Origin: Patescibacteria group bacterium | GTDB lineage: Bacteria > Patescibacteriota > JAUYIX01 > JBHPHK01 | Assembly (NCBI GenBank): GCA_042569365.1 | Contig: JBHPHK010000002.1 | Span: 10,494-74,493 of the forward strand | Reading direction: 5' to 3' | DNA length: 64,000 nt | Shown: piece by piece, positions 13,755 to 51,527 of the stretch | How the letters are laid out: the number at the start of each line of letters is the position of its first letter | Position numbering within the stretch: position 1 is the first letter of the stretch | Made by a program: the position numbers and the translations under genes | The notes under the pieces: model-generated | What the model was told of the DNA's origin: nothing | Database searches by the model: none | What the model saw: the letters and a program-made list of their open reading frames with translations, nothing else

Positions 13755-13760
13755 AATAAA

Positions 13761-14828: not shown

Positions 14829-14860
14829 TTACGTAAACTAGATCTTTTTAAAAATAAGAT

Positions 14861-15403: not shown

Positions 15404-15417
15404 ACAATAAAAAATTC

Positions 15418-17217
15418 GTGAAAAAAATAAACACTCTAACATTTAAAAATATAAAAGAAAAAATTCGTAAGAACGAAGTTTTGCTTACGATCGGATTGAT
15501 ACTTGCGGTTGTTGCAATTGTTATCTTTGTGGTGCCATCGGGGGCCTATGCTGCTGGATTTGCAGAGTCTTTAGGTCTCTGGGTATTCCGCATTATTGCA
15601 TTTATGCTCCAGCTCTATGTAGCGCTTCTAGCGATTCTGATCGCCTTTATGTCTGTTATTTTTGACTGGGTAGCGGGATTTGGCGTCTTTAGTCAGGGAA
15701 CGATTAACGAAGGATTGCTGCGCGGCTGGACGCTGTTGGTGAACGTCGCAAACCTGGTCTTCATTTTAATATTGCTGTTTATCGGTATCGCAACAATATT
15801 CCGCGTCGAACAATTTTCAATTCGTCGCTTGTTTGTGCGCGTTATCGTGGCTGTTTTGCTAATAAATTTCAGCTTCTTCTTCACAAAGATTATCACTAAT
15901 GGCGCGGATACGATTCAAAATATTTTCACCAATGGCGCAGTTGTTTTTCCTGAGTGTAGAGAGGCGGGTGTTCCGATCAGCTGTACGATAGGAAACCTGG
16001 TCGGTATCGGAGATTTGAACTGGGAATCGTCTGTAGGAGGACAAATGGAAATTTTTGATACTCTCATGGCGACAGATAGTACCGACGCAGCACTTGATGT
16101 GGCTATTAAGTCTGCCTTTATGATGGTATTCTTTTCTATCTTCTTGTTTGCTATCGCTATAGTTACCATTCTACTCTTGGTGCGTATGGTGGTCTTATGG
16201 ATCCTGGCTACCATTTCGCCATTTGCCTATGTTGCTATGATTTTGCCGAGTACTCGACCGTACTCTAGCCAATGGTGGAATGCGTTATTCCGGTGGGCTC
16301 TGCTTGGTCCGCTGACTTTGATTTTGATAAACGTGGGGATTTTGGTTATGACGCCAATGCAAGTTGTCGTTGATAATATGCCTGGCGGCAATATAAATGT
16401 TGGTCTCTCACAGGTTGTATTAAATGGAGTGCAGGGGCTAGGACTTTTGATTGTGGCCTCAATCTTTATGATAGGTTCGTTGATGGTGGCGCGTCAGATG
16501 GGCGGTTCCATCGCGGGCGCAATCGTAAACAATGCCAATAAAGGAGCAAAGAATCTTGGAAAATGGGCCGGAGGAAAGGCTTCGGGCGCAGTTCTCGGCA
16601 GGAAGGACTCCAAGACAGGCAAGCGCACTGGCGGCTTGATTCGTCGCGCGCCTGGATTGAAGCAGGCTTCTCAAGCTCTTGAAGGACGCGCCAAGGCAAG
16701 ACAGCAAGCCGGCTTGTCACGCGAAAAAGATTACCAAAAAGGAGTTACAGCTAAGACGGGTAAGTATCGCAAGAAAGCAATTTTGGGCGGCAAACACTTT
16801 GATGAAACAGCAGATCCTGAATATAAAAAACGCATCAGTGAGGGAATTAAAGAAAATAAGGATCCAGGCAATTATGTAAGCGCAGAACACCAGTACGCAA
16901 TAATGGACCAGGCTATTAAAGATGGAGATAAAGAAAAAGCAATGATTGCCCATGGATCAATTGGTGCCAATAAAGATATGACTACCAGAAATGATGTTCG
17001 GGGAAATGATTTTAGAGCTGCTACAGATAGGATGCAGGCGGCAGGTTTTATAGATGAAAAACAAGCAGTTGGACATAAGAACGTTGCGCGCAAAGATTCT
17101 CAGAAACGCATTGAAAAGATGCGTGAAAAGAAGGGAAAAGAGGGTAAGAAGAAGCCAGGTAAGACTTATGTGGATGAGTTTGGTGTTAAACGAGATGAAG
17201 AAGGCAATGCAGTTTAA
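15418..17217 (+). CDS. VirB6/TrbL-like polytopic membrane protein of the T4SS
   Basis: ~8 TM helices in the first ~380 aa, then a ~220-aa Lys-rich hydrophilic tail. Its position next to VirB3/VirB4 homologues is typical for VirB6. Confidence 0.5.
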   Translation: MKKINTLTFKNIKEKIRKNEVLLTIGLILAVVAIVIFVVPSGAYAAGFAESLGLWVFRIIAFMLQLYVALLAILIAFMSVIFDWVAGFGVFSQGTINEGLLRGWTLLVNVANLVFILILLFIGIATIFRVEQFSIRRLFVRVIVAVLLINFSFFFTKIITNGADTIQNIFTNGAVVFPECREAGVPISCTIGNLVGIGDLNWESSVGGQMEIFDTLMATDSTDAALDVAIKSAFMMVFFSIFLFAIAIVTILLLVRMVVLWILATISPFAYVAMILPSTRPYSSQWWNALFRWALLGPLTLILINVGILVMTPMQVVVDNMPGGNINVGLSQVVLNGVQGLGLLIVASIFMIGSLMVARQMGGSIAGAIVNNANKGAKNLGKWAGGKASGAVLGRKDSKTGKRTGGLIRRAPGLKQASQALEGRAKARQQAGLSREKDYQKGVTAKTGKYRKKAILGGKHFDETADPEYKKRISEGIKENKDPGNYVSAEHQYAIMDQAIKDGDKEKAMIAHGSIGANKDMTTRNDVRGNDFRAATDRMQAAGFIDEKQAVGHKNVARKDSQKRIEKMREKKGKEGKKKPGKTYVDEFGVKRDEEGNAV

Positions 17218-17246
17218 GAATCAAAAATATTAAGTTAGATTAATTT

Positions 17247-18659
17247 ATGCCAGAAATAACAGAACAAGATAAAGAGTTTGTTAAGTCGCTTACGCTGGAA
17301 CGCGCTAAAGACCCCGGCACTTTAGATTTATTGAAAAATCGGGCTATGTTTTTTTGGGAGGAAGATTCTCTAAGTGCCCGAATATTCGCCAGTCTCTTAG
17401 AAGATAAGTTTAATAACCAAGATATGCTTGACTTGCGTCAAGACGCAGTTTTATATCAGAAATATCAGGATCTTATCCTTGAAATGCGAGCAAAAGTTAT
17501 TGGTATTTTGAAACTTGAAGAGCAACAAGAGATTTTGCGCAATAATTTTCTGTCAGCTTATCAAAGTAATAAGAATATTTATGAAGATATAATTGAAAGT
17601 TTTGATTATTATGATGAAGACTTTGCCTTAGTAGAAGCAGAAAAAATTACAAGTGCTTTGAATAATAATCAAGAAACAATCGGAACAGAAAATATTGTAA
17701 TAGCAGGTGATACAAAGCCAGTAAGCCCGCAAATCAAATTCTGGATCAAGGATTTCAATAAATTTGCTGGAGGCATGCAAGTATCCACCGAAAAAATATC
17801 TGAATACTTCAGGCAAAACGATAATGTTCGCAAGCTTGACGAGGGAGAGAAGGAAATACTATCCACTATTATTAAAATAGTTAATAGCATGAAGCCTCCT
17901 CAGATAATAACGGGAGATTTGGCCATAGCTGGTGAGTCTCCAGAGAGAGCGGCTGAATTACAGAAGCTTATTAGTAAGAAGGCCGTTGCTCAATCTGAGC
18001 AAGCTCAGGTTTTAGCTTCTGCTGCGCCAGAGGATGTATTGGAGCCAACGGATGAGGAGATACAAGGACGGCCGCAAGCTACGGGACCAGCAGTAAATCC
18101 GTTAGCGGGACAGCCGAGTGTGGCTATACCTAAACCACCGGCACCTGCTCCGACAGCTACTTTGGCACCTGCGGGCCAAACTTTAGCAGCTCCTATTCCA
18201 AGCGAGCTGACTAAGCCTAAAAAAGGATTCTTTGGTCGTCGAAAAAAACAAAATCACGGAGGTTTGCAGATCCAAGATAGTCCTGCGATACAAAGCGCTG
18301 GTCGTAAGGTTGTGTCACCTCAGCCGACAGTTGCTCAACCTGTTACCGCTCAGCCGACACTAGAAAATAGCCTGCAAACAACTTCTGAGAATGCGATCAA
18401 GGCGTACCCTCAAGGCGGAGTGGAATATATCAATCAATTAAACTCGTCCGTTCAGGCTCGTATACAAGCAGATGCTGCGGCAAAAAATAATTTGGCCAAC
18501 AACTGGAAGCAAAGTCCACTTTATCAAAAATATCTTCAGGTAGGACAGGCAAGTATGCAATCTGGTCGCCCAATTCAAGAGGTCTTGCAGGAAAGTGGTA
18601 GTCAATTAACTCTTGAAGAATTTGAAAAAATTACTGCACTTAGTAAGGCGCTTAGCTAA
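17247..18659 (+). CDS. Hypothetical protein with a Pro/Ala-rich linker, T4SS-operon associated
   Basis: No TM segment. Low-complexity stretch PKPPAPAPTATLAPAGQTLAAPIPS. Unknown globular N- and C-terminal parts. Confidence 0.45.
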   Translation: MPEITEQDKEFVKSLTLERAKDPGTLDLLKNRAMFFWEEDSLSARIFASLLEDKFNNQDMLDLRQDAVLYQKYQDLILEMRAKVIGILKLEEQQEILRNNFLSAYQSNKNIYEDIIESFDYYDEDFALVEAEKITSALNNNQETIGTENIVIAGDTKPVSPQIKFWIKDFNKFAGGMQVSTEKISEYFRQNDNVRKLDEGEKEILSTIIKIVNSMKPPQIITGDLAIAGESPERAAELQKLISKKAVAQSEQAQVLASAAPEDVLEPTDEEIQGRPQATGPAVNPLAGQPSVAIPKPPAPAPTATLAPAGQTLAAPIPSELTKPKKGFFGRRKKQNHGGLQIQDSPAIQSAGRKVVSPQPTVAQPVTAQPTLENSLQTTSENAIKAYPQGGVEYINQLNSSVQARIQADAAAKNNLANNWKQSPLYQKYLQVGQASMQSGRPIQEVLQESGSQLTLEEFEKITALSKALS

Positions 18660-18664
18660 TTAAT

Positions 18665-19129
18665 ATGCAATACGAAGTTCCACAATTTATCGAAGTTGAA
18701 GATAAAATTATCGGGCCTTTTACTATTCGCCAGTTCTTGACGATGGTCGTAGGTGCAGTGGCTTTGGCAATACTTTATTTTATGCTTCCGATGATCGCGT
18801 TTATTATCATGGGCATCCCGGTCGTGGTATTTGTGGGAGCATTGGGTTTCTTAAAAATCAATGGACGTCCTTTCTATTTTTTCTTAGCACATTTAACAGG
18901 ATATATTTACCATCCGCGGTTGAGGGTGTGGCGCAGAGACCCAACTCTTCCAGCAGTTAAAGCGAAACAGTCTGACAAGGAAACATTAGAGGCACAAGAA
19001 CGTAAAACTAAGAAACTTCCACGGACAGGCATTGAGCGTTTATCATATATTCTCGATCACGCATCTACGGAAAGCTCAGTATATACAGAGGTGGCTGAAG
19101 AAAAAATCCGCCGCGGTGAAGTTGAATAA
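18665..19129 (+). CDS. VirB3/PrgI-family small membrane protein of the T4SS
   Basis: YEVPQFIEVEDKIIGPFTIRQFL followed by two TM helices. Lies immediately upstream of VirB4, as in Gram-positive conjugation loci. Confidence 0.5.
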   Translation: MQYEVPQFIEVEDKIIGPFTIRQFLTMVVGAVALAILYFMLPMIAFIIMGIPVVVFVGALGFLKINGRPFYFFLAHLTGYIYHPRLRVWRRDPTLPAVKAKQSDKETLEAQERKTKKLPRTGIERLSYILDHASTESSVYTEVAEEKIRRGEVE

Positions 19130-19141
19130 TAATTATTTTTT

Positions 19142-19867
19142 ATGGCAAAGAAAAACACAACACCATTAGTACAGACGATGCAGAGTTCAGGTTTAGCAAA
19201 TAGACCAGGCCAAAAGCAGAGTACTCAGATGTATCTGGATGTCCAAGAGATCCGTGAAGGTACGGTTGTCTTAAAGGATGGCGCATTAAGATCTGTTCTG
19301 TTGGTATCCAGTATGAACTTTGCTCTGAAGTCTTATGAAGAGCAGGAAGCTATAATTCTTGGCTATCAGGGTTTCTTGAACTCTTTGGATTTCCCGATTC
19401 AGATAGTTATGCAATCCCGTGTCTTAGACATTACTGAATACATCGCGAAGCTAGCAGAGCTTGAAAAACAACAATCCAACGAGCTGTTGCGCATCCAAAC
19501 CGCTTCCTACGGAGAATATATTGGTGAGCTTGTGAAGATCTCCAATATCATGAATAAGAACTTTTATATAGTGGTTTCGTTTTCTCCAGTTGGCGCCAAG
19601 AAGGATTCATTTTTTGGTCGTCTCGGTAAGATTATGAATCCAACGCGCGTCATTAAGCAGGAGGCGCAAAAATTTGCCGAATATAAAAGCCAGTTAGAGC
19701 AACGAGTAATGCAAGTGCAGGGAGGACTAGGAGCAGTTGGACTGAAATCGTTAGCCTTAGGAACCCAGGAATTAATCGAGCTGCTTTATCAAAGTTATAA
19801 CACCGAAAATGTTGGGCAAAAGAGCCTGCCAGATATCGGTGAATTAGATTTAGATCAGACAAGCTAA
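19142..19867 (+). CDS. VirB4/TraC-family N-terminal domain, encoded as a separate ORF
   Basis: LDVQEIREGTVVLKDGALRSVLLVSSMNFALKSYEEQEAIILGYQGFLNSLDFPIQI resembles the CagE/TrbE/VirB N-terminal region. Stops 5 nt before the VirB4 ATPase ORF, which is in a different frame. Confidence 0.5.
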   Translation: MAKKNTTPLVQTMQSSGLANRPGQKQSTQMYLDVQEIREGTVVLKDGALRSVLLVSSMNFALKSYEEQEAIILGYQGFLNSLDFPIQIVMQSRVLDITEYIAKLAELEKQQSNELLRIQTASYGEYIGELVKISNIMNKNFYIVVSFSPVGAKKDSFFGRLGKIMNPTRVIKQEAQKFAEYKSQLEQRVMQVQGGLGAVGLKSLALGTQELIELLYQSYNTENVGQKSLPDIGELDLDQTS

Positions 19868-19872
19868 AATAT

Positions 19873-21759
19873 ATGGCTATTTTCAACCGCAACAATCAAA
19901 CAAATCAACAAGCCGGCGTAGTGCCGCCGGCAACTGCTGCTCCTCAGCAAGTAGTAGCTCCAGGTCAAGAGGAGCTAGAGGTTACGCGTGAGCGTGAAAT
20001 TCTTGAAGCAGAGCGCGTTTACCGTGAGGGCATCGCAACCGTCAAGGATATTATCGCGCCTTCTGCAATGAAGGTGTCTGCTGACAAGATCCAAGTCGGA
20101 GATCATCTAGCACGCACACTTTTTGTATATACATACCCGCGCTTTTTGCAGGTCGGATGGCTTTCACCGATCGTCAATATGAATCAGGCGATGGATATCT
20201 CTATGTTTGTTTATCCTGTTTCGTCTGAGAAGATTTTGAAAACCTTGCGTAAGCGGGCCGCACAAATCTCTTCACAAATAAGAATGGATGCTGAAAAAGG
20301 AAAAGTTCGTGATCCTCTGATCGAATCTGCTCAGGAAAACGTTGAGGTGTTGCGCGACCAGTTGATCCAAGGCACAGAACACCTTTATAAATACGCACTG
20401 TACATTACTCTTTATTCTAAGACTGAAGAAGGACTTGATGAGCTCACTGCTGAGATCGAATCTATTTTGGGTGCGCGCATGATTTTGACGAAGCATACTT
20501 CGTTCCAGATGGAACAAGGTTTCAATTCAACATTGCCACTTGGAAATGATGAGCTTGCGGTAACGAACAACATGAACACATCGCCGCTTGCCACATCTTT
20601 CCCATTCATTTCATCAGAACTCACAAGTAATGACGGAATCTTGTACGGCATCAATCGCCACAACAATAGTCTGATTCTTTTTGATCGCTTTAGCTTGGAG
20701 AATGCTAATTCCGTTATCTTCGCTAAATCAGGTGCTGGTAAAAGTTATACGACCAAGCTTGAGGTGTTGCGCAGCATGATGCTGGGAAGCGATGTGATTA
20801 TTATTGACCCAGAAAATGAATATGAACACATGGCGGCAACGGTTGACGGCGCATATTTGAATATTTCATTGGCTTCAGAAAACAGGCTTAATCCATTTGA
20901 CTTGCCGCGTGAAAGCGATGAGCAAAATGCAGATGTCATCCGTGGCGCCGTAACGAACGTGAAAGGCTTGATCAATCTTATGCTCGGGACTCTCAATGCT
21001 GAGGAAGATTCGATTATGGATCGTGCTCTCTTGGAGACATATGCTAAGAAAGACATCAATGAAAATAGTGATCTACGCACAGTAGAATTTCCGACGATGC
21101 AGGACTTGGCCGAGGTCTTAGAGGGTATTGAAGGCGCCGAGAACCTTCTCATTCGCATTAAGAAATACACCGAAGGTACTTTCTCCGGTCTTCTCAATAA
21201 TCCAACCAATGTTGATCTGCGCAGGCAGCTGATCGTATTTAATATTCGTGATCTAGAGGAAGAATTGAGGCCGATTGGAATGTATCTGATCTTAAACTAT
21301 ATCTGGAATATAGTTCGCCAGGAACTTAAGAAACGCATTCTAATCATCGATGAGGCCTGGATTATGATGCAAAATGATGACTCAGCTCGTTTCCTATTTG
21401 GTATGGCAAAACGCGCTCGTAAATATTTCTTGGGAGTAACCACGATCAGCCAGGATGTCTCAGACTTCTTGGCATCGCGTTATGGCAGAGCGGTGGTATC
21501 CAACTCCTCACTTCAATTGCTGTTGAAACAGTCGCCTTCAACAGTCGATCTGATTCAAGAAGTCTTCCATTTGACGGATGAAGAAAAATTCCTGCTTCTC
21601 GAAAGCGATGTCGGAGAGGGGATATTCTTTGCAGGTCTAAAACATGCCGCGATTCACATTGTCGCGTCTTACTCAGAAGACCAAATTATTACTAGTGATC
21701 CAAGACAATTATTACAAATTGAAGATGCCAAACGAGAATTTGCCGAAGCGCAAGGCTAG
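19873..21759 (+). CDS. VirB4-like T4SS ATPase (central and C-terminal AAA domains)
   Basis: Walker A FAKSGAGKSYTTK, Walker B ILIIDEAW, and the C-terminal motif TISQDVSDFL. Confidence 0.85.
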   Translation: MAIFNRNNQTNQQAGVVPPATAAPQQVVAPGQEELEVTREREILEAERVYREGIATVKDIIAPSAMKVSADKIQVGDHLARTLFVYTYPRFLQVGWLSPIVNMNQAMDISMFVYPVSSEKILKTLRKRAAQISSQIRMDAEKGKVRDPLIESAQENVEVLRDQLIQGTEHLYKYALYITLYSKTEEGLDELTAEIESILGARMILTKHTSFQMEQGFNSTLPLGNDELAVTNNMNTSPLATSFPFISSELTSNDGILYGINRHNNSLILFDRFSLENANSVIFAKSGAGKSYTTKLEVLRSMMLGSDVIIIDPENEYEHMAATVDGAYLNISLASENRLNPFDLPRESDEQNADVIRGAVTNVKGLINLMLGTLNAEEDSIMDRALLETYAKKDINENSDLRTVEFPTMQDLAEVLEGIEGAENLLIRIKKYTEGTFSGLLNNPTNVDLRRQLIVFNIRDLEEELRPIGMYLILNYIWNIVRQELKKRILIIDEAWIMMQNDDSARFLFGMAKRARKYFLGVTTISQDVSDFLASRYGRAVVSNSSLQLLLKQSPSTVDLIQEVFHLTDEEKFLLLESDVGEGIFFAGLKHAAIHIVASYSEDQIITSDPRQLLQIEDAKREFAEAQG

Positions 21760-22258
21760 CTACAAAATTGCGCTCAATATCTTAATAATAGTCGTCATTG
21801 TGGCGGGTGTTTTTTGGATCGGTAGTTATTGGATGCAAATGCCGACCGCTTCACTTATGAGCGGCAAGGTTGCTGAAGAAGAAACGATTGAAATGGTCAA
21901 AACTAAAGCACAACAAATAGTCGAGCTTTATTATACATATTCAGCAGGCGATAGTCCGATGTTGCTGCAGAGTCTCCAGACAAGCGCCACAACAAATGCG
22001 AAAAAACAAATCGCAGAGCTCATTGAAACAAGAAAAGAAACGCAAGGCGGCTTTGTGCAGGTAGCAACAGTAAATGAAACCACTGACGTAAACATTCGGG
22101 AGCGTGCCGCAGCCCTCGATTACACTTTGAAGATTCAACATTATCGTCTCGGTGCAGAAGTCCAGGAGCAAGAAATTTCTGCAACCATTCGTCTAGTTAA
22201 TGAGGATGGTGTTTGGCTTCTTGCCGCTCTTTCCCCCAGTGAAATAACATGGCCTTAG
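21725..22258 (+). CDS. Small bitopic protein: N-terminal TM plus a ~140-aa extracytoplasmic domain; possibly a VirB8-like component
   Basis: Start re-set to MPNENLPKRK... at 21725 (the track ORF starts at 21644). TM IALNILIIVVIVAGVFWIG. Overlaps the VirB4 end by 35 nt. The VirB8 assignment rests only on architecture and position. Confidence 0.35.
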   Translation: MPNENLPKRKASYKIALNILIIVVIVAGVFWIGSYWMQMPTASLMSGKVAEEETIEMVKTKAQQIVELYYTYSAGDSPMLLQSLQTSATTNAKKQIAELIETRKETQGGFVQVATVNETTDVNIRERAAALDYTLKIQHYRLGAEVQEQEISATIRLVNEDGVWLLAALSPSEITWP

Positions 22259-24273
22259 AGTCGCTCAAAAATAAATATTGGATTTTTACAATATTGTTGT
22301 TGGTCTTTATGTTTTGTTTTTTTGTGACTTTGGTGGTAATGCCTGAGCCAAGCTTTGGGTCTACTACAGACCAGGAAAACGATGAAATCAATGACACATT
22401 GAGCTGTAATGGAGCAACGGAAGATAGTCTTGGAGCCGATGCGGATGTCAGTGACTACAATGAGCCGGTTGATGTGACGATAGATGAGGGAAGCGATCTG
22501 ATTGAGTACGATTTTGACGCAGATCAGATCTATGACTCGTCTCAAGCTTTCGTCGGAACGCCACAAGCAGAGATCTTTACACCATCTTATTCATTTCCGG
22601 TGGGCGCAGAGGTATTTCTAAATTTAAACCCGCTCTTTTTCAACTTAACGACGACCAATTTCAGCGATCTTTATGTTGCCTGGTTTCGGGATGACTTTCC
22701 GATGCAGGGCGTGGTAGCGGGTGCAGACTTTTCTACTCTGGAGGGTTTAACGGTAACAGGTATTGGTAACCCGGTTCCAGTCTGTAATTCCGTGAGTCGT
22801 TTAGCTGCGCTTGATACAGACGCAGATGGTCTCGATGATGAATGGGAGCGTCGCTACTTTGTTGATCGCAATCTAGCAGAGTCTATCGAAGCGGTTCTGC
22901 CTGATGATGACTTTGACAGCGACGGAGCTTTGCCGATCAATGCGGTGAATACTGCCGGTGAATTCATAACTGTAGTTCCAGCAGTCTTAGGACAAGATTC
23001 TCTGGATGGAAAATATACCAACTTAGAAGAATACGTTTGGGGCACTGATCCAACCAGTCCAGACACAGACGGCGACGGCCACAGAGACGGGGACGACATC
23101 CTGGGAACGGGTCAAATCCATTTCCTTTATATGAACGAAAAGGAATTCGGTGAGGAGGCTACGGTTGTCCGTGCAACAGCAGTCGGTACAGCTATGCAGC
23201 GCACCTCCAATGACGAGCGTTTGATCAAGATCGACAGTACGACCATAGACATCCTTACTACCAATGAAGAAAACCTGGACGGACACATTATCTTAGAAGA
23301 TAAATATATCCTGCCAAATGAATCGGGCGTGGCTAGATTCGAGCCAATCGGAACCGGGGCTCAGGCGAAGACTCTGGAAATCAACTGGTATGTCGATGGA
23401 GACTTGCAGACGGCGCAATCCGGTTTTTCCCAAACAGTCTTGGACTTTAAAATACCAAGCGATAAAACGACAGGAGATTATCTTGTCATAGCGGCGGCGG
23501 CCACTAATCCAACAACCGGTCAAATATCAAGAATAAGCGAAGTGATCCGTATCGGAGAGCCGATGGTGATGAGTTATCTGGCAGATCAAGCTTTTGCAGA
23601 CGAAATTCTGCCAGTTACGGTTAACTTTTTAAATCCAAATGCTCGCCAAGATTACGTTTATAAATGGTTCATTGATAACACATGGCAGGAAGATATTTCT
23701 GGCCCAGGTCGCAATACACTGCCGCTGGAAATAACCAAGCAAATCGAAGGCGATACTATGGATGTGAAAGTGCAGGTCTTCGAGATCAATTCAAGTGAAA
23801 TGGTCATAGAATTGGAAGAAGAAATTCCTGTTGTAGCGCCAAGTGTGGATTTAATACTCGCACCAGAGAGGCCGCAAGCCGGCAGTACAGTCACAGTTAT
23901 AGCAGACCTGACTCGTTTTCCTGGAAATTCTGTAGAATTTGATTGGACTATTGATCGGTTCGAAGTCGAACAAAAACAAAGCAGTCAAATTAGTTTTACA
24001 GCAGGCGAAATAGGAGCTGAGCATATTGTAGAGCTTGGCGTGCAAAACGATAGAGAACACAGTGATTATGCGGAGGCCATTGCGTTTATCGAGATTTACC
24101 CGTCATCGATCAGTAGTTCAAGTTTTTTAAACTCATCGTTCGGGAAAATACTAGCGCGCCTAAATGTTTCCTCACCTATTCCAATATTAACTTTCTGTGG
24201 CATTGTCCTCGTGATTTTCATAAGTCTTCTGGGAATCAAGAAAGCAACTAATCGTCCTTATAATGACGCGTAA
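22249..24273 (+). CDS. Double-anchored (N- and C-terminal TM) surface protein with TSP3 repeats; paralog 1 of 3
   Basis: N-terminal TM. ENDE...SCNGATED. DTDADGLDDEWERRYFVDRNLAESIEAVLPDDDFDSDG. NLEEYVWGTDPTSPDTDGDGHRDGDDILGTGQ. C-terminal TM ILTFCGIVLVIFISLLG. Confidence 0.7.
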   Translation: MALESLKNKYWIFTILLLVFMFCFFVTLVVMPEPSFGSTTDQENDEINDTLSCNGATEDSLGADADVSDYNEPVDVTIDEGSDLIEYDFDADQIYDSSQAFVGTPQAEIFTPSYSFPVGAEVFLNLNPLFFNLTTTNFSDLYVAWFRDDFPMQGVVAGADFSTLEGLTVTGIGNPVPVCNSVSRLAALDTDADGLDDEWERRYFVDRNLAESIEAVLPDDDFDSDGALPINAVNTAGEFITVVPAVLGQDSLDGKYTNLEEYVWGTDPTSPDTDGDGHRDGDDILGTGQIHFLYMNEKEFGEEATVVRATAVGTAMQRTSNDERLIKIDSTTIDILTTNEENLDGHIILEDKYILPNESGVARFEPIGTGAQAKTLEINWYVDGDLQTAQSGFSQTVLDFKIPSDKTTGDYLVIAAAATNPTTGQISRISEVIRIGEPMVMSYLADQAFADEILPVTVNFLNPNARQDYVYKWFIDNTWQEDISGPGRNTLPLEITKQIEGDTMDVKVQVFEINSSEMVIELEEEIPVVAPSVDLILAPERPQAGSTVTVIADLTRFPGNSVEFDWTIDRFEVEQKQSSQISFTAGEIGAEHIVELGVQNDREHSDYAEAIAFIEIYPSSISSSSFLNSSFGKILARLNVSSPIPILTFCGIVLVIFISLLGIKKATNRPYNDA

Positions 24274-26380
24274 ATCAGTAATCATAAGTATATTTTTAAT
24301 AGCTCTTATCGGAGGGTCGTTTTGGCTGTGGTCGCATTACTCTTATGTAAATGGCGAAACGTGGACTGATCACGAAAATGACGAGGCGGATGTACATGCG
24401 GGTGGTCCACACGACATATTTGCGTGTAATGGCGTTCAGGAAGACATGCAGGCACCCACAGGATCATATAACAATTCCTTTCCGCCAGTACAAGTGGATG
24501 CAGATATTGACTGGGATGATCAGGATATAGATATCAACGAAGACTGGATGTCCGATACTCAATTTAATCAAATGATCAGCGAGGGTAGCTTAAGTATGCA
24601 ATCTCCGCAATTGGACATTGCCTTGAGTCCGGTAGCTCCAGAAGAAGGACAAGAAATTGAAGCGACTGCTGCAGTGCAAATGTTGCGTTCGACAGATATG
24701 GAAAGCATGGATACTTATTTTGCCTGGTCGTTGGACGGAGTTTCAATGATGGGTGTTGTGGCCGGGGGCGATCCTTTAGATCTCCTGCCTTCATCTCTGC
24801 GCGACTCCTGCACGACAGTGACGCGCATCCCAGATACAGATGTTGACGGTGACGGCATGGATGATGCGTGGGAAGAGCGCTATTTTGTGCGCCGCAATCT
24901 GGCGGATTCCATCGCAGATGTCTTACCGGAGGACGACGGAGACCTTGATGGCTTTGCGCCTATTGATCTGGTCAATCTTCAGGGTCAACCATTGATCTTA
25001 ACACCGCTACTGAGCACAGCTGCCACTGTGCCGACAGGCACTTTAGATATTCAAGACTCAGCTTACACCAATCTCGAAGAATATATTTGGGGAACTGATC
25101 CAACAGACCCTGATACTGATGATGATGGATACTTGGACGGAGAAGATATTGCCGGACGCGGTCAACTTTCTCTTAAATTCACACCAACCAAAGGCGTTCA
25201 CGATTTCCCGCCGCATCAATTGCGCGCAACAGTCGGAGGAATTTCCTTCCAAACATTGACAGACGACACTCACGACTCTGAAGAATTAGTTAAGTTAGAT
25301 AGTGATGTCAAAGACGTTTTTATCTCAACTGGAGAGAAGCTGGAAGGAATCCTAAATATGCAGCCGGATATAGCGGCGCCTGGAGAGACGGTTACATTTA
25401 CATTCCAACCTCTTCAAACGGATGCTGATCCCGGAGCATTAGCTTACGAATGGCGGTTTGATGGTGAGCCAAAAACTAATCCTCTGCCATCAGCTGAGAT
25501 ATTTGAGTATCTGATTCGTCCTACTGAGCATGAGCCACGCTCCGCAATTGATGTTGATCTGGAGGTGGTCAATCCATCAACGGGGCAATTAACAACTATT
25601 CAAAGTTCATATTTTGTAGCTGAGCCTATCGATCTCGTGCCGATGGATGCTGACATTGTCCCAGGTTCTAGTACAACAGTTAACACATATCTAATATCCG
25701 GCGCAGATCCGAGCGATTTTCTTTTCAAGTGGTATGTCGATAACTCTTTAGATGAAAGAGCTTCGGGGGTTGGTAATAATTCTTTGACATTTGATGTAGA
25801 AGAGGATTTTGGCGGCTATCATCGGGTAAAGCTTGAACTCTTCGACATTAGTAATAGCCGTTTGGTTGGTAGGCAACAAATTGATCTTCCTATCGCCGGT
25901 CCATCTATTGAGCTAACTTTTATTCCTGAAATAGCACAGCCAGGAGAGACGGTGACAGTCGTGGCTGAGGCTGTTAATTTTCCACGAAATCTAGACACCG
26001 ATCAGGACGATATTAATGATGCTTCTCAGATAGAATTTGTATTTGAGCTTGATGGGGCGGAGGTCGGATCAGACATCAACGCAGCAGGAGCAGGGACGAT
26101 GTCGTTTACAGCAGGTAATGATAATGAAATTTATAAGATAAATATTTCGGCAAAAACTACTGGTGAAGAATTTCAATCGGCAGAGGCGATAGGCCAATAT
26201 CAAGTTGGCGCGGGCCCCATTTCATACGAAACCAGTCTTTTTAATCGTTTTACAGCATCGCTTATCCAGAATCCACGAACCTATATTATTTCTGTGATTT
26301 CAATTGGAATTATCACGTTAATATTCTTTCTTGTCTTGCGCAGTATGATGCCGCGTAAAGCAAATAGAAACCAAACTTAA
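24263..26380 (+). CDS. Double-anchored TSP3-repeat surface protein; paralog 2 of 3
   Basis: IFACNGVQED. DTDVDGDGMDDAWEERYFVRRNLADSIADVLPEDDGDLDG. NLEEYIWGTDPTDPDTDDDGYLDGEDIAGRGQ. C-terminal TM. Confidence 0.7.
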   Translation: MTRKSVIISIFLIALIGGSFWLWSHYSYVNGETWTDHENDEADVHAGGPHDIFACNGVQEDMQAPTGSYNNSFPPVQVDADIDWDDQDIDINEDWMSDTQFNQMISEGSLSMQSPQLDIALSPVAPEEGQEIEATAAVQMLRSTDMESMDTYFAWSLDGVSMMGVVAGGDPLDLLPSSLRDSCTTVTRIPDTDVDGDGMDDAWEERYFVRRNLADSIADVLPEDDGDLDGFAPIDLVNLQGQPLILTPLLSTAATVPTGTLDIQDSAYTNLEEYIWGTDPTDPDTDDDGYLDGEDIAGRGQLSLKFTPTKGVHDFPPHQLRATVGGISFQTLTDDTHDSEELVKLDSDVKDVFISTGEKLEGILNMQPDIAAPGETVTFTFQPLQTDADPGALAYEWRFDGEPKTNPLPSAEIFEYLIRPTEHEPRSAIDVDLEVVNPSTGQLTTIQSSYFVAEPIDLVPMDADIVPGSSTTVNTYLISGADPSDFLFKWYVDNSLDERASGVGNNSLTFDVEEDFGGYHRVKLELFDISNSRLVGRQQIDLPIAGPSIELTFIPEIAQPGETVTVVAEAVNFPRNLDTDQDDINDASQIEFVFELDGAEVGSDINAAGAGTMSFTAGNDNEIYKINISAKTTGEEFQSAEAIGQYQVGAGPISYETSLFNRFTASLIQNPRTYIISVISIGIITLIFFLVLRSMMPRKANRNQT

Positions 26381-26386
26381 ATCCAT

Positions 26387-28384
26387 ATGTCGATCAACTG
26401 GAAAAAAAGAATAGCAATCCTTCTCGTAATTTTTCTGGCAGCAGGCAGCGTCAGTTTTTGGAATATGGATTTTACAAACGCGATTTCTGATCCAGAAAAC
26501 GACGAAGACGCCGACATATTTGCGTGTAACGGTGTCAGGGAAGATGCTTTTGGAAAAGCAACTCAGTCGTCTCTAGACGAGCAATGGCCGCCAGCTCATG
26601 TAAGTGGCAAAAACGTTGTCTTTGACTATGATCCAGATGAAATAGCGGGTCGGGCGATGGCAGAAGTAGACGCACCGCGCGCCAGCATTATGACCTCGAG
26701 TCGCATGGGCCAAAACAGCGTCGATGAAAATATTGCCCTATCAGCCTTACCGCTAGTATTTGATACAACTGAAAATGACCAGGGCGATATAAGTTTTTCC
26801 TGGTCTATCGACGGGACGTCAATTATGGGCGTAGTGGCTGGCGCTAGTTCATTAGATTTGCCAGAGAGCGGGGGAGAGCATTGTAGTACAGTTACGCGTA
26901 CGCCAGAAACAGATACAGATGGCGATGGCATGGATGATGCATGGGAACAGCGCTACTTCGTAGATACTGCCGCCTTCGGCTCTATTGCAGAAGTCTTGCC
27001 GGGTGATGATTATGACCAGGACGGCATTATCGCAGATCAGTTTTTAAGTTCAGACTCAGGTCAAGCTCTGATAAACAGTCCGACAACAAGTGTTGGACCT
27101 CCTGGCGACGGCATATTTACAAACTTGGAGGAATATATTTGGGGTACGGATCCAATTGATGCGGACACAGACGATGACGGCTTTATAGACGGAGAAGATA
27201 TTCTTGGTCTTGGTCAGTCGAGCATTGAGCTTGATCCAACAATATTTATTTCAGAAAGCACTAACAGGTTTAACGTTCGTCTGACAATACTAGGCTACTG
27301 GGCGGCGCGTGACAATGAAAACAATCGCATTGCAAAGCTAGATAGCACCGAAGAAGTAGTGATCGTGAGTGAAGAAGAAGACATGGAAGTTAGCTTGCGT
27401 TTAGAAAATCGAACAACACCAAGGCCTGGTGACATTATTAAGGTACAGGCTCAGGTTAGAGACACGCGATCCTTGTCTGACGTCTTAAATTATCGGTGGT
27501 ATGTAAATGGGGTTGAACAAGTTGATGCTAGCGGTGCAGGAGCTCACATTTTGAACTATCCGCTTTCGACAGCGGTCGCGCCAGAGACGAAAGTCGAGAT
27601 CAGAGTAGAAGCCTACAACGAGACCACTGGCGATATTGCAGAAGATACAATATATTTCCAGGTAGGACAGCTTGTAGCATTTGAATACGATCCCGTTAAA
27701 GTCTTTCAGGGAAATGAAATAACTGTCGGAACAATTTTCCCAGACACAATAGAGAAGGACGATTATGTTTTCCGTTGGACGATTGATGGCATCCAGCAAA
27801 AAACCAAATCTGGTTTAGGCCAAGATGAGATTGAGTTTGTGATAGATAAGCCAGAATTTGAGACACATACAGTTGAGCTTGATATCATTCGCCGCTATGA
27901 TAGTACGGTCTTGGCGACAATTAGCGAGGAAATTGGAATAATTTCTCCAAAAGTAACGCTAGTCATTACTCCTGAAGTTATTGCGCCGGGCAGTACAGTC
28001 ACTCTGCAAACTCTGACCCAAGCCTTTGGCTCGACAAATTTAAAATATGAATGGCAAATAGATGGTCAGGATATAGAAGACGCATCATCAAGTATATTGA
28101 GCTTTACGGCTGGAGAGTCTGGAGCGCAGCATATGGCTGAGGTGGTTGTAACAGATTTACGCAGCGATCATTCTATTTCTGCTACTGCGCTAGCGGACAT
28201 ATATGTCAGCAGCACATCTTCCAACGAGGGGAATAGCATCATTAGTCTAGCAGCCAGTCTGCTTGACAGTGCGCCAAAAGTTACGCTTGCCATTACAGGC
28301 TTTATACTGCTTATGATAGCGATCTTTGCTATACTAAGGAGTGTGAGTGCTGGATCTAAACAAACTTCTGTTAAACAATCATAA
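26387..28384 (+). CDS. Double-anchored TSP3-repeat surface protein; paralog 3 of 3
   Basis: IFACNGVRED. ETDTDGDGMDDAWEQRYFVD. NLEEYIWGTDPIDADTDDDGFIDGEDILGLGQ. C-terminal TM ITGFILLMIAIFAIL. Confidence 0.7.
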   Translation: MSINWKKRIAILLVIFLAAGSVSFWNMDFTNAISDPENDEDADIFACNGVREDAFGKATQSSLDEQWPPAHVSGKNVVFDYDPDEIAGRAMAEVDAPRASIMTSSRMGQNSVDENIALSALPLVFDTTENDQGDISFSWSIDGTSIMGVVAGASSLDLPESGGEHCSTVTRTPETDTDGDGMDDAWEQRYFVDTAAFGSIAEVLPGDDYDQDGIIADQFLSSDSGQALINSPTTSVGPPGDGIFTNLEEYIWGTDPIDADTDDDGFIDGEDILGLGQSSIELDPTIFISESTNRFNVRLTILGYWAARDNENNRIAKLDSTEEVVIVSEEEDMEVSLRLENRTTPRPGDIIKVQAQVRDTRSLSDVLNYRWYVNGVEQVDASGAGAHILNYPLSTAVAPETKVEIRVEAYNETTGDIAEDTIYFQVGQLVAFEYDPVKVFQGNEITVGTIFPDTIEKDDYVFRWTIDGIQQKTKSGLGQDEIEFVIDKPEFETHTVELDIIRRYDSTVLATISEEIGIISPKVTLVITPEVIAPGSTVTLQTLTQAFGSTNLKYEWQIDGQDIEDASSSILSFTAGESGAQHMAEVVVTDLRSDHSISATALADIYVSSTSSNEGNSIISLAASLLDSAPKVTLAITGFILLMIAIFAILRSVSAGSKQTSVKQS

Positions 28385-28388
28385 CCAC

Positions 28389-29525
28389 ATGTCAGTTATA
28401 TCCAAAAAAGTATTAATAATTTATGCAATTGCATTTGTCGGCATAATTTGCTTCGCAACAATTAGTTGGGCTCTTAGTACTCAAGATTTTATTACAGTTT
28501 CAGAAAAGAGGATTGGTGAAAGTGATAGGGGAGTGACATGGGAGTTGACAATCAGTAATGGCAAAGAGAAAGCCGACGATTGTACGACGCCAAGTAACGG
28601 TCTACCTCCTGATCTGTATAAAGTAGTTCCGATCAGTTCAGGAGGATCAATACAGCCCCCTGATAAAAGTGGCTTAATTGTTATTGAGGGGGATGATGAA
28701 ATTGTATCCGGTTGGTCTCTGAGTCGTAATGCAATTCAGGCTCATAATGATGATACAGTGAAGGTTTTAGTTCTAGGTGAGTCGGCTAAGTTTTACGTAC
28801 AGATCTATTGTTGGAAAGAAGGAATGGCTACTGTAGATGAATACTTTAACGTTATGAACGATGCTTATTTCTTTGATGGCAATGAAGAAATCAATGACAG
28901 TGTTACTGATAAAAATTCAATGGAAATCGAACTCCTGGGCGTTAATATAAATGACCAAGATGGTGATCAATTAAGGGATGAGGATGAAAAGAGTGATCGT
29001 TGTCCGCACATCTTAATTCCGGACAGTGATGGAGATGGATCAAAAGACGGAAATGACAGTAGTGGTCCTTGTATTAACACCAATTACACTAATAGTCCCA
29101 ATATAATCTACGGCAGTAAAGATGAGTGTACGACGGCAATAGGCGATCGTGCTAATGACGATCCGCCATCTGTCTGCTATGCGCTAAGTGGCATTGATGG
29201 CAAGACTTATTACCGTGAAGGAAAGCCTTCAGGTGTGAATAGTTCTATTGATCCTGAGAGCTTGGATGTAAGCGGATGGGATCCAGACTTAACACCTTTT
29301 AGGGCATTAATTGGCACATATTATAATATTGCAATTTCTTTTGGTGCTTTGGCGGCAATTATAATGATTATTATAGGCGGTTATCAATATGCTACTGCGG
29401 CGGGTAATCAAGCGCGCATATCCCAGGCAAAAACAACTATAAACTATGCATTACTAGGACTTGCAGTTGTGATCTTGGCGGCAGTCTTCTTAAATCTTGT
29501 TAATCCCGCTATCATCGGCGGATAA
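28389..29525 (+). CDS. Membrane protein with an Asp/Cys-rich extracellular domain and a C-terminal VirB2/T4SS-pilin-like two-helix hairpin
   Basis: N-terminal TM. Extracellular DQDGDQLRDEDEKSDRCPHILIPDSDGDGSKDGNDSSGPC. C-terminal hairpin FGALAAIIMIIIGGYQYATAAGNQARISQAKTTINYALLGLAVVILAAVF. Start chosen at the ATG at 28389, after the upstream stop. Confidence 0.45.
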   Translation: MSVISKKVLIIYAIAFVGIICFATISWALSTQDFITVSEKRIGESDRGVTWELTISNGKEKADDCTTPSNGLPPDLYKVVPISSGGSIQPPDKSGLIVIEGDDEIVSGWSLSRNAIQAHNDDTVKVLVLGESAKFYVQIYCWKEGMATVDEYFNVMNDAYFFDGNEEINDSVTDKNSMEIELLGVNINDQDGDQLRDEDEKSDRCPHILIPDSDGDGSKDGNDSSGPCINTNYTNSPNIIYGSKDECTTAIGDRANDDPPSVCYALSGIDGKTYYREGKPSGVNSSIDPESLDVSGWDPDLTPFRALIGTYYNIAISFGALAAIIMIIIGGYQYATAAGNQARISQAKTTINYALLGLAVVILAAVFLNLVNPAIIGG

Positions 29526-29536
29526 ATTATTAAAAT

Positions 29537-30721
29537 ATGCGTTCTCGAATTCTCATTATTATTAGCGTCATCCTTTTGGTCTTAATTTTGGCCGGAGTTG
29601 GTCTGTACCTACTTTTTTCTAACGGTGACGTAACTACACCTGCGGAAAATGAAGGCAATGGTCAGGTAGGTCTGACAGAATATGGAACACAAGCCTTGGC
29701 AGCCCTTGAGGATCCGAAACAACTACCACCCCTGACTAAATTAAATGATCTGCCGAGTAATTATCTGAGCTATGACAATAAAGAGAAGCAGTTGATTTAC
29801 TACAACAATTCAGCTGAGCAAATATTTGCTTCAAATTTGCTGGGATATGGCCAATCTGCGCGTTCTGACGAATTAAGCAATTTGACAGACATGGTTTGGT
29901 CGGCAGATAGAAATAAAGGCTTGCTCTTTTTCCAGGCAAGTGAGGGTAGTCCATTTCGCGCCTATATTTTTGATAACGAAACTCTGGAAACCAAAGAAAT
30001 TAAAGGCTATTACTCGAGTCTTACTTGGGCGAATGACTCGCGTTACCTAATCGGTTATCGTATTGGAGCTGCGGACGATGCAGCTACAGGCATTGTTAAA
30101 ATCAATAGAGAAACATTAGCGGAAGATGTTTTGTACGAAAGCGACCTGGAAGGCGTTCAGGTTCTATCTTACGGCGAAGATATTTTATATTATCTCAAGA
30201 CCGAAAGTCTGCGTCGCAGTAGCTTGTACCTCTTTGATACGTCAGCCAAAAAATCAACAGAACTTATATCCGGCTATTATAATTTTGAACCATTACTTTC
30301 GCCAAATGAAAACAAATTAATCTTTACTGGAAATACAGATGCTAATGATAAGCCTACGCTTCAGTATAAAGATTTAAGTAACGCAAGCAGTAAAGTATTT
30401 AGTCTTAATGTGGAAACATTTGCTAGCAAGTGTGCCTGGAATAGTGCTAGTACGGCAATCTACTGCGCTGTGCCGACAAGTTTGCCGATTAGTCAGACTC
30501 TCTATCAGGATTATCTTGATGCTAAGTTGAACAACTTAGATGCGATCTGGAGAATCAGCAGTGAATCTTTCGATGTAGAACAAATTATACCCGCACAAAA
30601 AATGTATGAAATTGATGCGCGTTATATGGTCGTTGGGAAAGATGACGCAACATTATATTTTATTAATCGTAGGGATGCCTATCACATTTGGGCTGTCAAT
30701 CTACATCTCTTAGAAGTTTAA
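29537..30721 (+). CDS. Membrane-anchored protein with a probable TolB-like beta-propeller domain; last gene of the operon
   Basis: N-terminal TM ILIIISVILLVLILAGVGLYLL. Repeated YxxSLTWANDSRYLI-type PD40-like blocks. Confidence 0.45.
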   Translation: MRSRILIIISVILLVLILAGVGLYLLFSNGDVTTPAENEGNGQVGLTEYGTQALAALEDPKQLPPLTKLNDLPSNYLSYDNKEKQLIYYNNSAEQIFASNLLGYGQSARSDELSNLTDMVWSADRNKGLLFFQASEGSPFRAYIFDNETLETKEIKGYYSSLTWANDSRYLIGYRIGAADDAATGIVKINRETLAEDVLYESDLEGVQVLSYGEDILYYLKTESLRRSSLYLFDTSAKKSTELISGYYNFEPLLSPNENKLIFTGNTDANDKPTLQYKDLSNASSKVFSLNVETFASKCAWNSASTAIYCAVPTSLPISQTLYQDYLDAKLNNLDAIWRISSESFDVEQIIPAQKMYEIDARYMVVGKDDATLYFINRRDAYHIWAVNLHLLEV

Positions 30722-41704: not shown

Positions 41705-42994
41705 ATGAATAATACTACCAAAAAATGGCTACAATGGGTTAAGGATCCCCTTACTATACTAGGAATAATACTTGTCGGAGCAATACTTGCTGGGGCTGTT
41801 ATTTTATTTCAGCAAAAAGGGCCTGCAAGTGCCCAATTCGGCATCGGGATAGAGATTGAGGATCCTAAATTTGGTGCAGAGCCGGATCCGGACCCTGAAG
41901 TTGAAGACGCTCCAGCGACAGTTCACGGCCGAATCTACTTTGATAATGTGCCATACGGCATTTATAGCGTCTCTGGAGATACTCCAGATGAACCTATTAA
42001 TGGGGTAGAAGTACAATTATTAGACGCAGGCAGCAATGTTTTAGTAACAGATACGACAGAAAATGGTGGGACCTTCGAATTTACAACAGCAACACTATCA
42101 GAGGCGACAGTATTCCAGATAGATATTCTCACAGAGCTAGAGGACTCTGGATATTACAAAAGCGCGGGACCAGATGTGCCGATGCAAATAATACTGAATC
42201 CAGGACAAGATTTAAATAGTGAAAGTCTTGTCTACTTCGGGTACACGCTCGTGCCACCCGGATTTTTCCAGACTCGTCGGGGAGACGTGCACAGCAATGG
42301 TTTGGATGAAAATGGATTGTTCGATCCAGATAGTTATGGTATCGCCAATCATTATCCTGGTCTGAATTGTATTCAGTCAATCGACACGGATGGAGACGGC
42401 AACCCGGACATGATCAACATTGATTCGGCTGACGAAGCTTGTTCAGCAGAATTTCTTGTGACCACCCAAAATAATATTTTCAACTTTTTCACGCGCAGCG
42501 AGACAGAAAGAGTAGGGGAGGATTGGCTCTGGGGAGATGACATTCGAGCAGGTAATCCATTTGAAGACTCTTACTATGATCTTGGTACTCCATTTGTTGA
42601 TATGAGCTTGGCGCTGGGCGCTCCAACTAAAAGTGATATCGATAACATCAAGAAAAGTGTTGCCGAAAATTGCCTTATTAATGTGGATTCACTAGGAGAG
42701 ATCAATTTCAATGACACGCCGTATGCTGACTGCGATTTCATATATCGCAACGGAGATCTTGAACTCACCGGTACCCCAACAAAAATAACTGGTCGTGGCA
42801 CATTGATCGTGTCAGAAAACCTTACGGTCGGTGGTAATATCGAATATGACCGTCAAAACTATTTCACAATCGAAAGCATGGACTCATTTGGACTGATCAT
42901 CGAGGGTAATCTGATCATCAAGCCTAATGTTGACCGCATCGTGGGAGCATTCTTTGTTGGCTCTGAAATATTTACAAACAATAACGCAGAATAA
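41705..42994 (+). CDS. Secreted/membrane-anchored hypothetical protein
   Basis: N-terminal TM ILGIILVGAILAGAVILF. Asp-rich DTDGDGNPD segment. Probable beta-solenoid-like C-terminal part. Confidence 0.45.
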   Translation: MNNTTKKWLQWVKDPLTILGIILVGAILAGAVILFQQKGPASAQFGIGIEIEDPKFGAEPDPDPEVEDAPATVHGRIYFDNVPYGIYSVSGDTPDEPINGVEVQLLDAGSNVLVTDTTENGGTFEFTTATLSEATVFQIDILTELEDSGYYKSAGPDVPMQIILNPGQDLNSESLVYFGYTLVPPGFFQTRRGDVHSNGLDENGLFDPDSYGIANHYPGLNCIQSIDTDGDGNPDMINIDSADEACSAEFLVTTQNNIFNFFTRSETERVGEDWLWGDDIRAGNPFEDSYYDLGTPFVDMSLALGAPTKSDIDNIKKSVAENCLINVDSLGEINFNDTPYADCDFIYRNGDLELTGTPTKITGRGTLIVSENLTVGGNIEYDRQNYFTIESMDSFGLIIEGNLIIKPNVDRIVGAFFVGSEIFTNNNAE

Positions 42995-44733: not shown

Positions 44734-44744
44734 TAGGTTTTACT

Positions 44745-50099: not shown

Positions 50100-50310
50100 A
50101 AAAATTAAGGTTTCTAACTAAAAGATTAACATAATTTAACTGTTTTTTAGTTGTGCATAGAAAATTGGCTTAAAAATGTAATAAAAACACCAAAAACTAT
50201 TGACAAATATATAACAATATTGTCTAATAATCCAATTTTAGGAAACTATAATAAAGTTGATTAGTGTGGATAAGAACGTTGTTTTGCAGGCTTGTTCGTG
50301 GCATAATTAA

Positions 50311-50351: not shown

Positions 50352-50428
50352 CATTACTTCCCAAAATTTTTCCGAGAAGATATCTTCTCGTGTTGCTGTT
50401 AAGGCAAATTAAGCAAGAACTCACCAAC

Positions 50429-51481: not shown

Positions 51482-51527
51482 TTTAAATACTACTTTCTAA
51501 TTTCATTCTTCATTAATCACTAAATCA

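Follow-up and report, generated by a model that had tools for sequence, protein, structure and literature searches.

The subject of this report is a stretch of 64,000 nucleotides of contig JBHPHK010000002.1 from an ultrasmall Patescibacteria group bacterium (referred to below as the window), and in particular a gene on its forward strand at 28389-29525 that encodes a 378-residue protein. The N-terminus of the protein resembles a signal peptide and is followed by an acidic ectodomain and a linker, and at the C-terminus stands a two-helix hairpin of the Pfam pilin family T4SS_pilin (PF18895), and its gene is the second-to-last of an operon that encodes a type IV secretion system (T4SS). It may be understood as a T4SS pilin-module protein that places a lineage-specific host-contact domain at the secretion machine, a reading that we favour with modest confidence. 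While the Patescibacteria T4SS and the PF18895 pilin family have already been published, two aspects are new: the large orphan domain upstream of a terminal hairpin, which is unique among the 56 hairpin proteins compared, and the wider pattern, in which the hairpin works as a modular anchor to which surface domains or wall enzymes are joined.

Patescibacteria possess a monoderm-type T4SS with VirB2-like pilins, usually lacking a relaxase and PrgB-type adhesins (PMC12102498, PMC10633639, PMC12857230), and these pilins set it apart from other monoderm systems (PMC10633639, PMC12857230). The system is essential for the epibiotic growth of Southlakia epibionticum, the one species tested, and its function is unknown (PMC12102498, PMC10633639, PMC12857230, PMC11665869); no pilus has been visualised to date (PMC12857230). 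A survey from 2025 lists genes of this kind as VirB2, without lengths, and reports that most genomes with VirB2 lack VirB1 and that pilin arrays are frequently encoded away from virB4 (PMC12102498).

A pilin hairpin at the end of a 378-residue protein

The open reading frame (ORF) starts with the ATG at 28389, comprises 378 codons, and ends with a stop codon whose last letter is 29525; the product is identical to the NCBI hypothetical protein ACFL1U_00555 (Patescibacteria group bacterium). Hydropathy analysis finds exactly three hydrophobic segments in it, at residues 1-32, 307-338 and 347-378. The last two fall into the hairpin, which the Pfam T4SS_pilin profile recognises at residues 308-371 with 29.7 bits (gathering cutoff 26.6, E 6.8e-7) in an alignment that spans profile positions 9-71 of 71, and a hidden Markov model (HMM) of the family, built from 120 members, scores 85.6 bits (E 1.7e-24). 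In an AlphaFold2 (AF2) model based on a 96-sequence family alignment, helices at residues 302-335 and 341-376 are predicted with a core predicted local distance difference test (pLDDT) score above 90. With 34-36 residues each, they exceed a plain membrane span. The features of the gene are as follows (residue numbers refer to the protein).

28389-29525, forward strand: whole gene, 378-residue pilin-hairpin fusion protein; uninterrupted ORF, stop codon 29523-29525
28389-28472, forward strand: probable Sec signal peptide, residues 1-28; hydrophobic segment 1-32, helix 4-30 in the model, cleavage site inferred from sequence
28494-28877, forward strand: beta-rich N-terminal ectodomain module, residues 36-163; about 10 predicted strands, pLDDT 45-67
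28884-29102, forward strand: acidic, probably flexible region, residues 166-238; from composition and pLDDT 22-39 (disordered in the model)
28953-28988, forward strand: TSP3-like Ca2+-binding motif 1, DQDGDQLRDEDE, residues 189-200; regular expression, aligns to the TSP3_bac repeats of P0124
29022-29057, forward strand: TSP3-like Ca2+-binding motif 2, DSDGDGSKDGND, residues 212-223; regular expression, aligns to the TSP3_bac repeats of P0124
29106-29228, forward strand: small alpha/beta module with Cys247 and Cys263, residues 240-280; helix 244-256, strands 262-267 and 273-278, pLDDT 63-75
29229-29291, forward strand: linker and degenerate pre-hairpin motif SLDVSGWDPDLTPF, residues 281-301; aligned to PLEnLPGF, the conserved mature N-terminus of the family
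29292-29393, forward strand: pilin helix 1 with invariant GG, residues 302-335; AF2 pLDDT >90, PF18895, conserved residues
29394-29408, forward strand: hairpin turn, residues 336-340, inside the conserved polar, basic stretch TAAGNQARISQAK; AF2, conserved residues
29409-29516, forward strand: pilin helix 2, residues 341-376; AF2; the protein ends two residues on, with no C-terminal extension

The hairpin also carries the residues that characterise its family. All 13 conserved residues (A, I, I, GG, TAAGN, K, G, L) are identical in the protein, conserved positions being those with at least 75% conservation in 120 free pilins, a set that was itself retrieved by a profile including the protein. 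The search with the hairpin profile yielded 459 proteins, and the best 120 of these are 66-155 amino acids long; almost all of the 120 match PF18895, several also match PF04956 (TrbC/VirB2), and some are named 'pilin'. The length of 378 residues lies outside the small size of described PF18895 members (a signal peptide, ~25 residues and the hairpin, about 100-155 amino acids in all), which is a habit of these proteins and stands outside the Pfam definition. Membership of the protein in PF18895 is established.

The homology of the PF18895 family to the VirB2/TrbC pilins is moderately supported by profile comparison. When the family alignment was compared by hhalign with seven VirB2/TrbC proteins taken from annotated plasmids, the two matched over 66 columns in the correct helix-loop-helix register with 85.7% probability (E 5.5e-6), whereas against one single VirB2 sequence the probability was only 13%. 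In addition, NCBIfam gives a sub-threshold match to a 'pilin-like' family of Mycoplasma integrative and conjugative elements. Like the TrbC/VirB2 pilins of diderms (PF04956; Agrobacterium VirB2, plasmid TrbC), the protein has a (probable) signal peptide, two long hydrophobic helices and a short loop, and both kinds are encoded beside VirB3/VirB4-type genes. In contrast to them, its system is of the monoderm type and a large ectodomain is part of the protein; sequence identity amounts to about 10%. The protein also resembles the PF18895 pilins, such as those of the essential pilin array of S. epibionticum ML1 (PMC10633639, PMC12102498), with which it shares the hairpin family, the conserved residues, the phylum and the kind of operon (VirB4, PrgI/VirB3, TrsD, VirB6-like). 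It differs from these in its length of 378 residues with an orphan ectodomain and in being encoded by a single gene, whereas the S. epibionticum ML1 pilins form an array.

A preliminary description of the gene, made from the sequence, had recognised two hydrophobic C-terminal helices separated by a short polar loop and had assigned them to the VirB2/TrbC type, and the first statement is borne out and the assignment supported by the PF18895 score, the conserved residues, the hhalign match and a conserved operon position. The same holds for its remark that the protein is not a simple pilin, as the lengths of the best 120 family matches indicate. Its estimate of about 75 residues for the hairpin has to be corrected, since the conserved module comprises about 83 (residues ~296-378).

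At the other end of the protein, the hydrophobic segment 1-32 that had been described as an anchor is present, but it reads as a signal peptide: the n-region MSVISKK, with its KK pair, is followed by an 18-residue hydrophobic core and then by SWA and L. Cleavage of a Sec signal peptide between this A and L is probable. The ATG at 28389 is a credible start. An alternative GTG at 28347, which is preceded by AAGGAG, would lengthen the protein by 14 residues; it was rejected because Shine-Dalgarno sequences occur before only 3 of 42 genes in the window, so that the AAGGAG is probably coincidental. The upstream regions of these genes are AT-rich.

The acidic ectodomain

The 275 residues between the signal peptide and the hairpin form an ectodomain with an aspartate content of 12.6%, as compared to a mean of 5.7 +/- 2.5% for 54 proteins of the window. 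Cysteine accounts for 1.85% of the whole protein (mean 0.47 +/- 0.76%), the second highest value among the 54, and six of the seven cysteines are located in the ectodomain, where they are probably disulphide-bonded, as judged from the sequence. The earlier label of an Asp/Cys-rich domain is thus accurate relative to this genome, although 'Cys-rich' is an overstatement in absolute terms.

The first of its modules, residues 36-163, has no homologue in 1.84e9 representative proteins and no Pfam or NCBIfam match. The 73 residues of the second region (166-238) include 19 D+E as compared to 5 K+R, and contain Cys205, Cys228 and a pair of TSP3-like repeats. These are the acidic DxDGD blocks that had been noticed before; there are two of them, at residues 189 and 212, and each conforms to the Ca2+-binding motif DxDxDGxxDxxE. 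A TSP3-like motif is present in the other surface proteins of the operon as well, and the motifs suggest that the ectodomain may bind Ca2+.

Database matches of the ectodomain are confined to these repeats. An exhaustive phmmer search with residues 30-305 over 1.84 billion representative proteins retrieved the protein itself and one 36-residue match (E 5.6e-6), which lies within residues 166-238 and corresponds to the TSP3_bac repeats of P0124. P0124 is a confirmed TSP3_bac protein, and the pattern common to both is DxDGDxLxDEDExSDxCP...PDSDxDG. The protein resembles TSP3-repeat surface proteins (PF18884) in its pair of DxDGDxxxDxxE-type motifs, which like those of P0124 have a Cys-Pro between them. 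It differs from them in that it has just two repeats, inside an otherwise unrelated domain, and the Pfam model does not score these motifs. A word-indexed search with the whole protein gave matches confined to its C-terminal part, a search of PDB sequences for relatives of the ectodomain found nothing, and a comparison with 70 extensions of hairpin proteins from related loci revealed no similarity. Paralogy with the three surface proteins encoded immediately upstream was considered and rejected, as phmmer similarity to them is limited to the short motif. The ectodomain is thus an orphan, without relationship to these upstream paralogs or to any of the 70 extensions.

Hairpin fusions at related loci and their interpretation

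To place the protein among its counterparts, 80 loci from species-representative Patescibacteria genomes, retrieved via VirB4 at 50-64% identity, were surveyed. They share a conserved gene order: a TSP3 protein, a VirB6-like protein, a relative of the gene at 17247 of the window, PrgI, a TrsD-like protein, VirB4 and two genes of ~250 amino acids, then one or more giant surface proteins, followed by a hairpin protein and a relative of the gene at 29537. The slot of the hairpin protein is kept in eight related loci (L001-L006, L062, L066) and is always filled by a protein with a hairpin, the form of which varies. It is a simple 149-residue pilin in L001, a protein of 230-262 residues with a C-terminal extension in L002, L003, L004 and L066, and a protein of 424-439 residues with the hairpin between Cys-rich N-terminal and Cys-rich C-terminal extensions in L005, L006 and L062. 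Between genomes with VirB4 identities of 55-64% these extensions are unrelated, which is what a host-specificity module would lead one to expect.

A census of the 56 complete hairpin ORFs near virB4, the present one included, indicates that fusion is the prevailing state of hairpin proteins at such loci. Fifty-four of them are fusions: the extension is exclusively C-terminal in 42, present on both sides in 11 and wholly upstream in one, while two proteins are simple. The protein described here is that one, the only case in which the entire extension precedes a strictly C-terminal hairpin. The preliminary description had called for a survey for the same fusion; it is absent elsewhere, because the ectodomain is an orphan among 1.84e9 proteins, and yet hairpin fusion as such is no peculiarity of this protein. 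Fusions of such kind are unmentioned in the literature searched.

Many of the extensions are enzymes. Pfam finds T4SS_pilin in 53 of the 56 proteins, TrbC in 13 (E up to 0.01), SLT in 11, GDSL in 2 and YkuD in 1, and both GDSL proteins are among the 11 with SLT. Examples are hairpin-SLT proteins (L014:14125-15327, L037:16275-17531, L044:15092-16315, L078:16772-18040), the GDSL-hairpin-SLT proteins (L003:19053-21014, L004:13402-15354) and a hairpin-YkuD protein (L033:12783-13874). Furthermore, a cluster of 25 related C-terminal extensions includes the SLT-positive proteins. Like the present protein, these enzymes carry the PF18895 module within a larger exported protein encoded downstream of virB4. 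In the enzymes, however, the peptidoglycan-active domains are mostly C-terminal to the hairpin, and most of the hairpins have lost the TAAGN motif of the loop, whereas the present protein has a non-enzymatic-looking orphan domain N-terminal to a hairpin that retains TAAGN and all other conserved residues. Pfam and NCBIfam detect no domain in it besides the pilin: no SLT, GDSL, YkuD or peptidase.

Several further proteins are of note. The slot proteins of L005 (7404-8681), L006 (16522-17811) and L062 (16370-17695) have the C-terminal end GHNxHLHVSVxGC, with an HxH motif reminiscent of LAS/M23-type peptidases, and Pfam finds no domain in their C-terminal part. P0002 (227 amino acids) contains two tandem pilin hairpins in a single polypeptide, and in P0003 (289 amino acids) a hairpin at the N-terminus is joined by a Pro-rich linker to a Cys-rich domain that has SLT-like motifs.

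In the reading favoured here, the protein is a PF18895 pilin with a lineage-specific ectodomain of 275 residues as an insertion that separates the Sec signal peptide from the hairpin. The protein would be exported by Sec and its signal peptide presumably cleaved, and the two long hydrophobic helices would then insert into the membrane as a hairpin. According to the positive-inside rule, the basic TAAGN...K loop is predicted to be cytoplasmic with both ends outside, which would place the acidic ectodomain on the cell surface. With such a topology, N- and C-terminal extensions would be topologically equivalent, both extracytoplasmic. Since the hairpin keeps all residues conserved in free pilins, the VirB4/VirB3/VirB6 machine would probably recognise it like any pilin. 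The protein might become part of the pilus or channel, where its bulk makes a low-copy or tip position the most plausible, or it might be held beside the machine; either way, a variable, adhesin-like host-contact domain would arrive at the site of secretion.

Bulky tip and minor subunits exist in other systems, including VirB5 at the tips of T-pili and the tip proteins of the GspK/PilY1 type in type II secretion and type IV pili. They resemble the proposed arrangement in that a large domain, put on or with a pilin-like module, reaches the distal end of a filament for contact. The tip location of the present protein is hypothetical, and the likeness to VirB5 and to GspK/PilY1 is one of function by analogy, with no claim of homology.

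Several observations weigh against this reading. With regard to the hairpin, of the two profiles that the preliminary description had proposed for comparison, T4SS_pilin matches above its cutoff, but PF04956 (TrbC) gives no match at E values up to 1. A Foldseek search of the PDB with the bare two-helix hairpin as the query returned no significant match to VirB2 or TraA structures, although this comparison is uninformative, because such a hairpin matches nothing significantly. Hydropathy and the family HMM found no second pilin gene within the 64-kb window. With regard to the ectodomain, the Pfam TSP3_bac model (PF18884) matches neither the whole protein nor the isolated segment at E values up to 10, the single-sequence AF2 model of the full-length protein is poor (pLDDT 48), the ectodomain matches no fold or family, and Foldseek matches of so poor a model are meaningless. 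For this reason the term adhesin is a suggestion, drawn from composition, TSP3 motifs and genomic context. Finally, the hairpin could be a mere localisation anchor, because many of the sister fusions carry enzymes and not binding domains.

This last point leads to an alternative in which the hairpin is a T4SS-proximal membrane anchor that stays in the membrane, and the protein a surface-anchored accessory factor, structural or wall-modifying, with a role like that of VirB1 and of the SLT, GDSL and YkuD fusions at related loci. The census speaks for it: 54 of 56 hairpin proteins are fused, 11 of them to SLT (two of these also to GDSL) and one to YkuD, and since filament subunits can hardly be expected to carry an enzyme, the role of the hairpin in the enzyme fusions must be that of an anchor. 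The peptidase-like HxH ends of the slot counterparts in L005, L006 and L062 point the same way. The present protein, however, has no catalytic domain or motif detectable by Pfam or NCBIfam, its hairpin conforms to the canonical type of free pilins, in contrast to the diverged loops of most enzyme-fused hairpins, and its extension is on the opposite side of the hairpin from that in 42 of the 56. We consider such an anchoring role somewhat unlikely.

A second alternative is that the protein is the major polymerising pilin, every subunit of which would bear a 30-kDa acidic domain outward, resulting in a self-decorated bottle-brush pilus; the 'display scaffold' of the preliminary description, taken literally, amounts to this. 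The operon and the 64-kb window contain no other hairpin gene, the protein occupies the slot of the simple 149-residue pilin of L001, the 13 residues typical of free pilins are all kept, and a linker of ~20 residues precedes the hairpin. Against these points, the literature searched describes no pilin of the VirB2 type in which every subunit bears a large domain, none of the best 120 of the 459 family matches exceeds 155 amino acids, and geometric reasoning predicts severe crowding on a five-start VirB2-type filament. Moreover, a simple major pilin may exist elsewhere in the genome, because pilin arrays are often encoded away from virB4 (PMC12102498). A bottle-brush pilus is decidedly unlikely. 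Even less credible, indeed very improbable, is an artefactual ORF, created by a sequencing or assembly error or by the recent loss of a stop codon that joined a secreted-protein gene to a small pilin gene: the protein is a singleton without a full-length homologue among 1.84e9 representatives and its source is a metagenome-assembled genome, but in a read-through fusion the signal peptide of the pilin itself would survive as a further hydrophobic segment inside the protein, whereas only the three segments are present and the 40 residues before the hairpin are polar, with no such remnant; large domains upstream of the hairpin occur independently in 11 other loci, and the junctions of the gene are tight and operon-like (gaps of 4 nt upstream and 11 nt downstream).

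The favoured reading, of a pilin-module protein with a host-contact domain, can be extended to the VirB2-like hairpin as a general plug-in, in which case the machine would take up any exported domain fused to it and present it on the pilus or at its tip. We regard this extension as unlikely. If it were true, the protein would build or cap a conjugative-type filament with its own 30-kDa Ca2+-dependent host-binding domain, the sister genes would deliver wall-cutting enzymes likewise, and the VirB2 superfamily would gain its first pilin-adhesin fusion, and with it a direct handle on host-cell contact by an essential and functionally unexplained Patescibacteria T4SS.

The census also has a bearing on how such genes are counted. 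Many 'VirB2' genes beside virB4 are hairpin modules joined to variable surface domains or peptidoglycan enzymes and not small pilins, and the frequent fusions, often to peptidoglycan enzymes, suggest that the hairpin is no less a modular, T4SS-linked anchor than a filament subunit. Hairpin fusions are therefore candidates for the adhesin that has been reported missing (the 2025 survey found none of the PrgB type). In addition, the VirB1 function that is reported as mostly absent (PMC12102498) may hide inside genes counted as VirB2, because the survey counts hairpin-SLT/GDSL/YkuD fusions as such. With its singleton ectodomain, the present protein taken alone mainly illustrates the rapid turnover of host-contact modules. 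It provides concrete constructs for testing the targeting of hairpin cargo, namely the hairpin alone, the ectodomain alone and swapped anchors.

The operon and other features of the window

The T4SS operon is co-directional and tightly packed, and has ksgA and recG as its neighbours on either side. It contains the following genes, all on the forward strand.

12747-30721, forward strand: T4SS operon including the hairpin-fusion gene; Pfam, NCBIfam, paralogy, transmembrane (TM) segments, and gene order kept in L001-L006, L062 and L066
12747, forward strand: TSP3_bac protein (Pfam)
13761, forward strand: unknown gene (operon gene order)
14861, forward strand: small membrane protein (operon gene order)
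15418-17217, forward strand: VirB6-like polytopic protein with six segments (TM segments)
17247, forward strand: unknown gene (operon gene order)
18665, forward strand: PrgI/VirB3 (Pfam/NCBIfam)
19142-19867, forward strand: TrsD-like protein, 241 amino acids, directly upstream of virB4 (NCBIfam E 5e-5 and 3e-8); resembles the N-terminal part of VirB4
19873-21759, forward strand: VirB4 (Pfam), 6.6 kb upstream of the hairpin-fusion gene in a strand-continuous operon
21644-22258, forward strand: unknown gene, 204-residue ORF (operon gene order)
22249, 24263 and 26387 (region 22249-28384), forward strand: three tandem paralogous TSP3-motif surface proteins, 665-705 amino acids (pairwise E 1e-76 to 1e-89)
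29537-30721, forward strand: conserved partner, 394 amino acids, with an N-terminal TM segment (gene order)

As had been described before, the hairpin-fusion gene directly follows the TSP3 paralogs, starting 4 nt past the last of them, in an operon with PrgI/VirB3, TrsD-like, VirB4 and VirB6-like components. A TrsD-like protein is reported as the most abundant component of the Patescibacteria T4SS (PMC12102498), with which the gene at 19142-19867 agrees. Each of the three paralogs carries a TSP3-like motif between a signal or anchor at the N-terminus and a TM segment at the C-terminus, and their domain matches are limited to weak PKD/Ig-like ones; the related loci have one or two surface proteins of ~900-1220 amino acids in their place. 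Downstream of the fusion gene, the product of 29537-30721 has no family assignment and a faint propeller-like Dpp5 match. Eight related loci (L002-L006, L062 and L066 named) encode a protein like it (380-450 amino acids, N-terminal TM segment) directly downstream of the hairpin gene in the slot, and this product is a candidate for a functional partner of the hairpin protein. A scan of the operon for promoters and terminators gave counts no different from those of shuffled sequence. As listed, the 204-residue ORF at 21644-22258 overlaps the 3' end of virB4 by 116 nt, and its true start probably lies further downstream.

Two other clusters were observed in the window. A second surface-protein cluster at 41705-49409 encodes a 1554-residue protein without a family and two proteins with weak SdrD_B-like matches. 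A type IV pilus cluster at 50264-56897 comprises PilM, a PilB-like T2SSE ATPase and PilC (T2SSF), with small pilin-like ORFs downstream. The sole strong GGAGGT of the window is found in this cluster, 5' of the 148-residue gene at 56943, which possibly encodes a highly expressed major type IV pilin.

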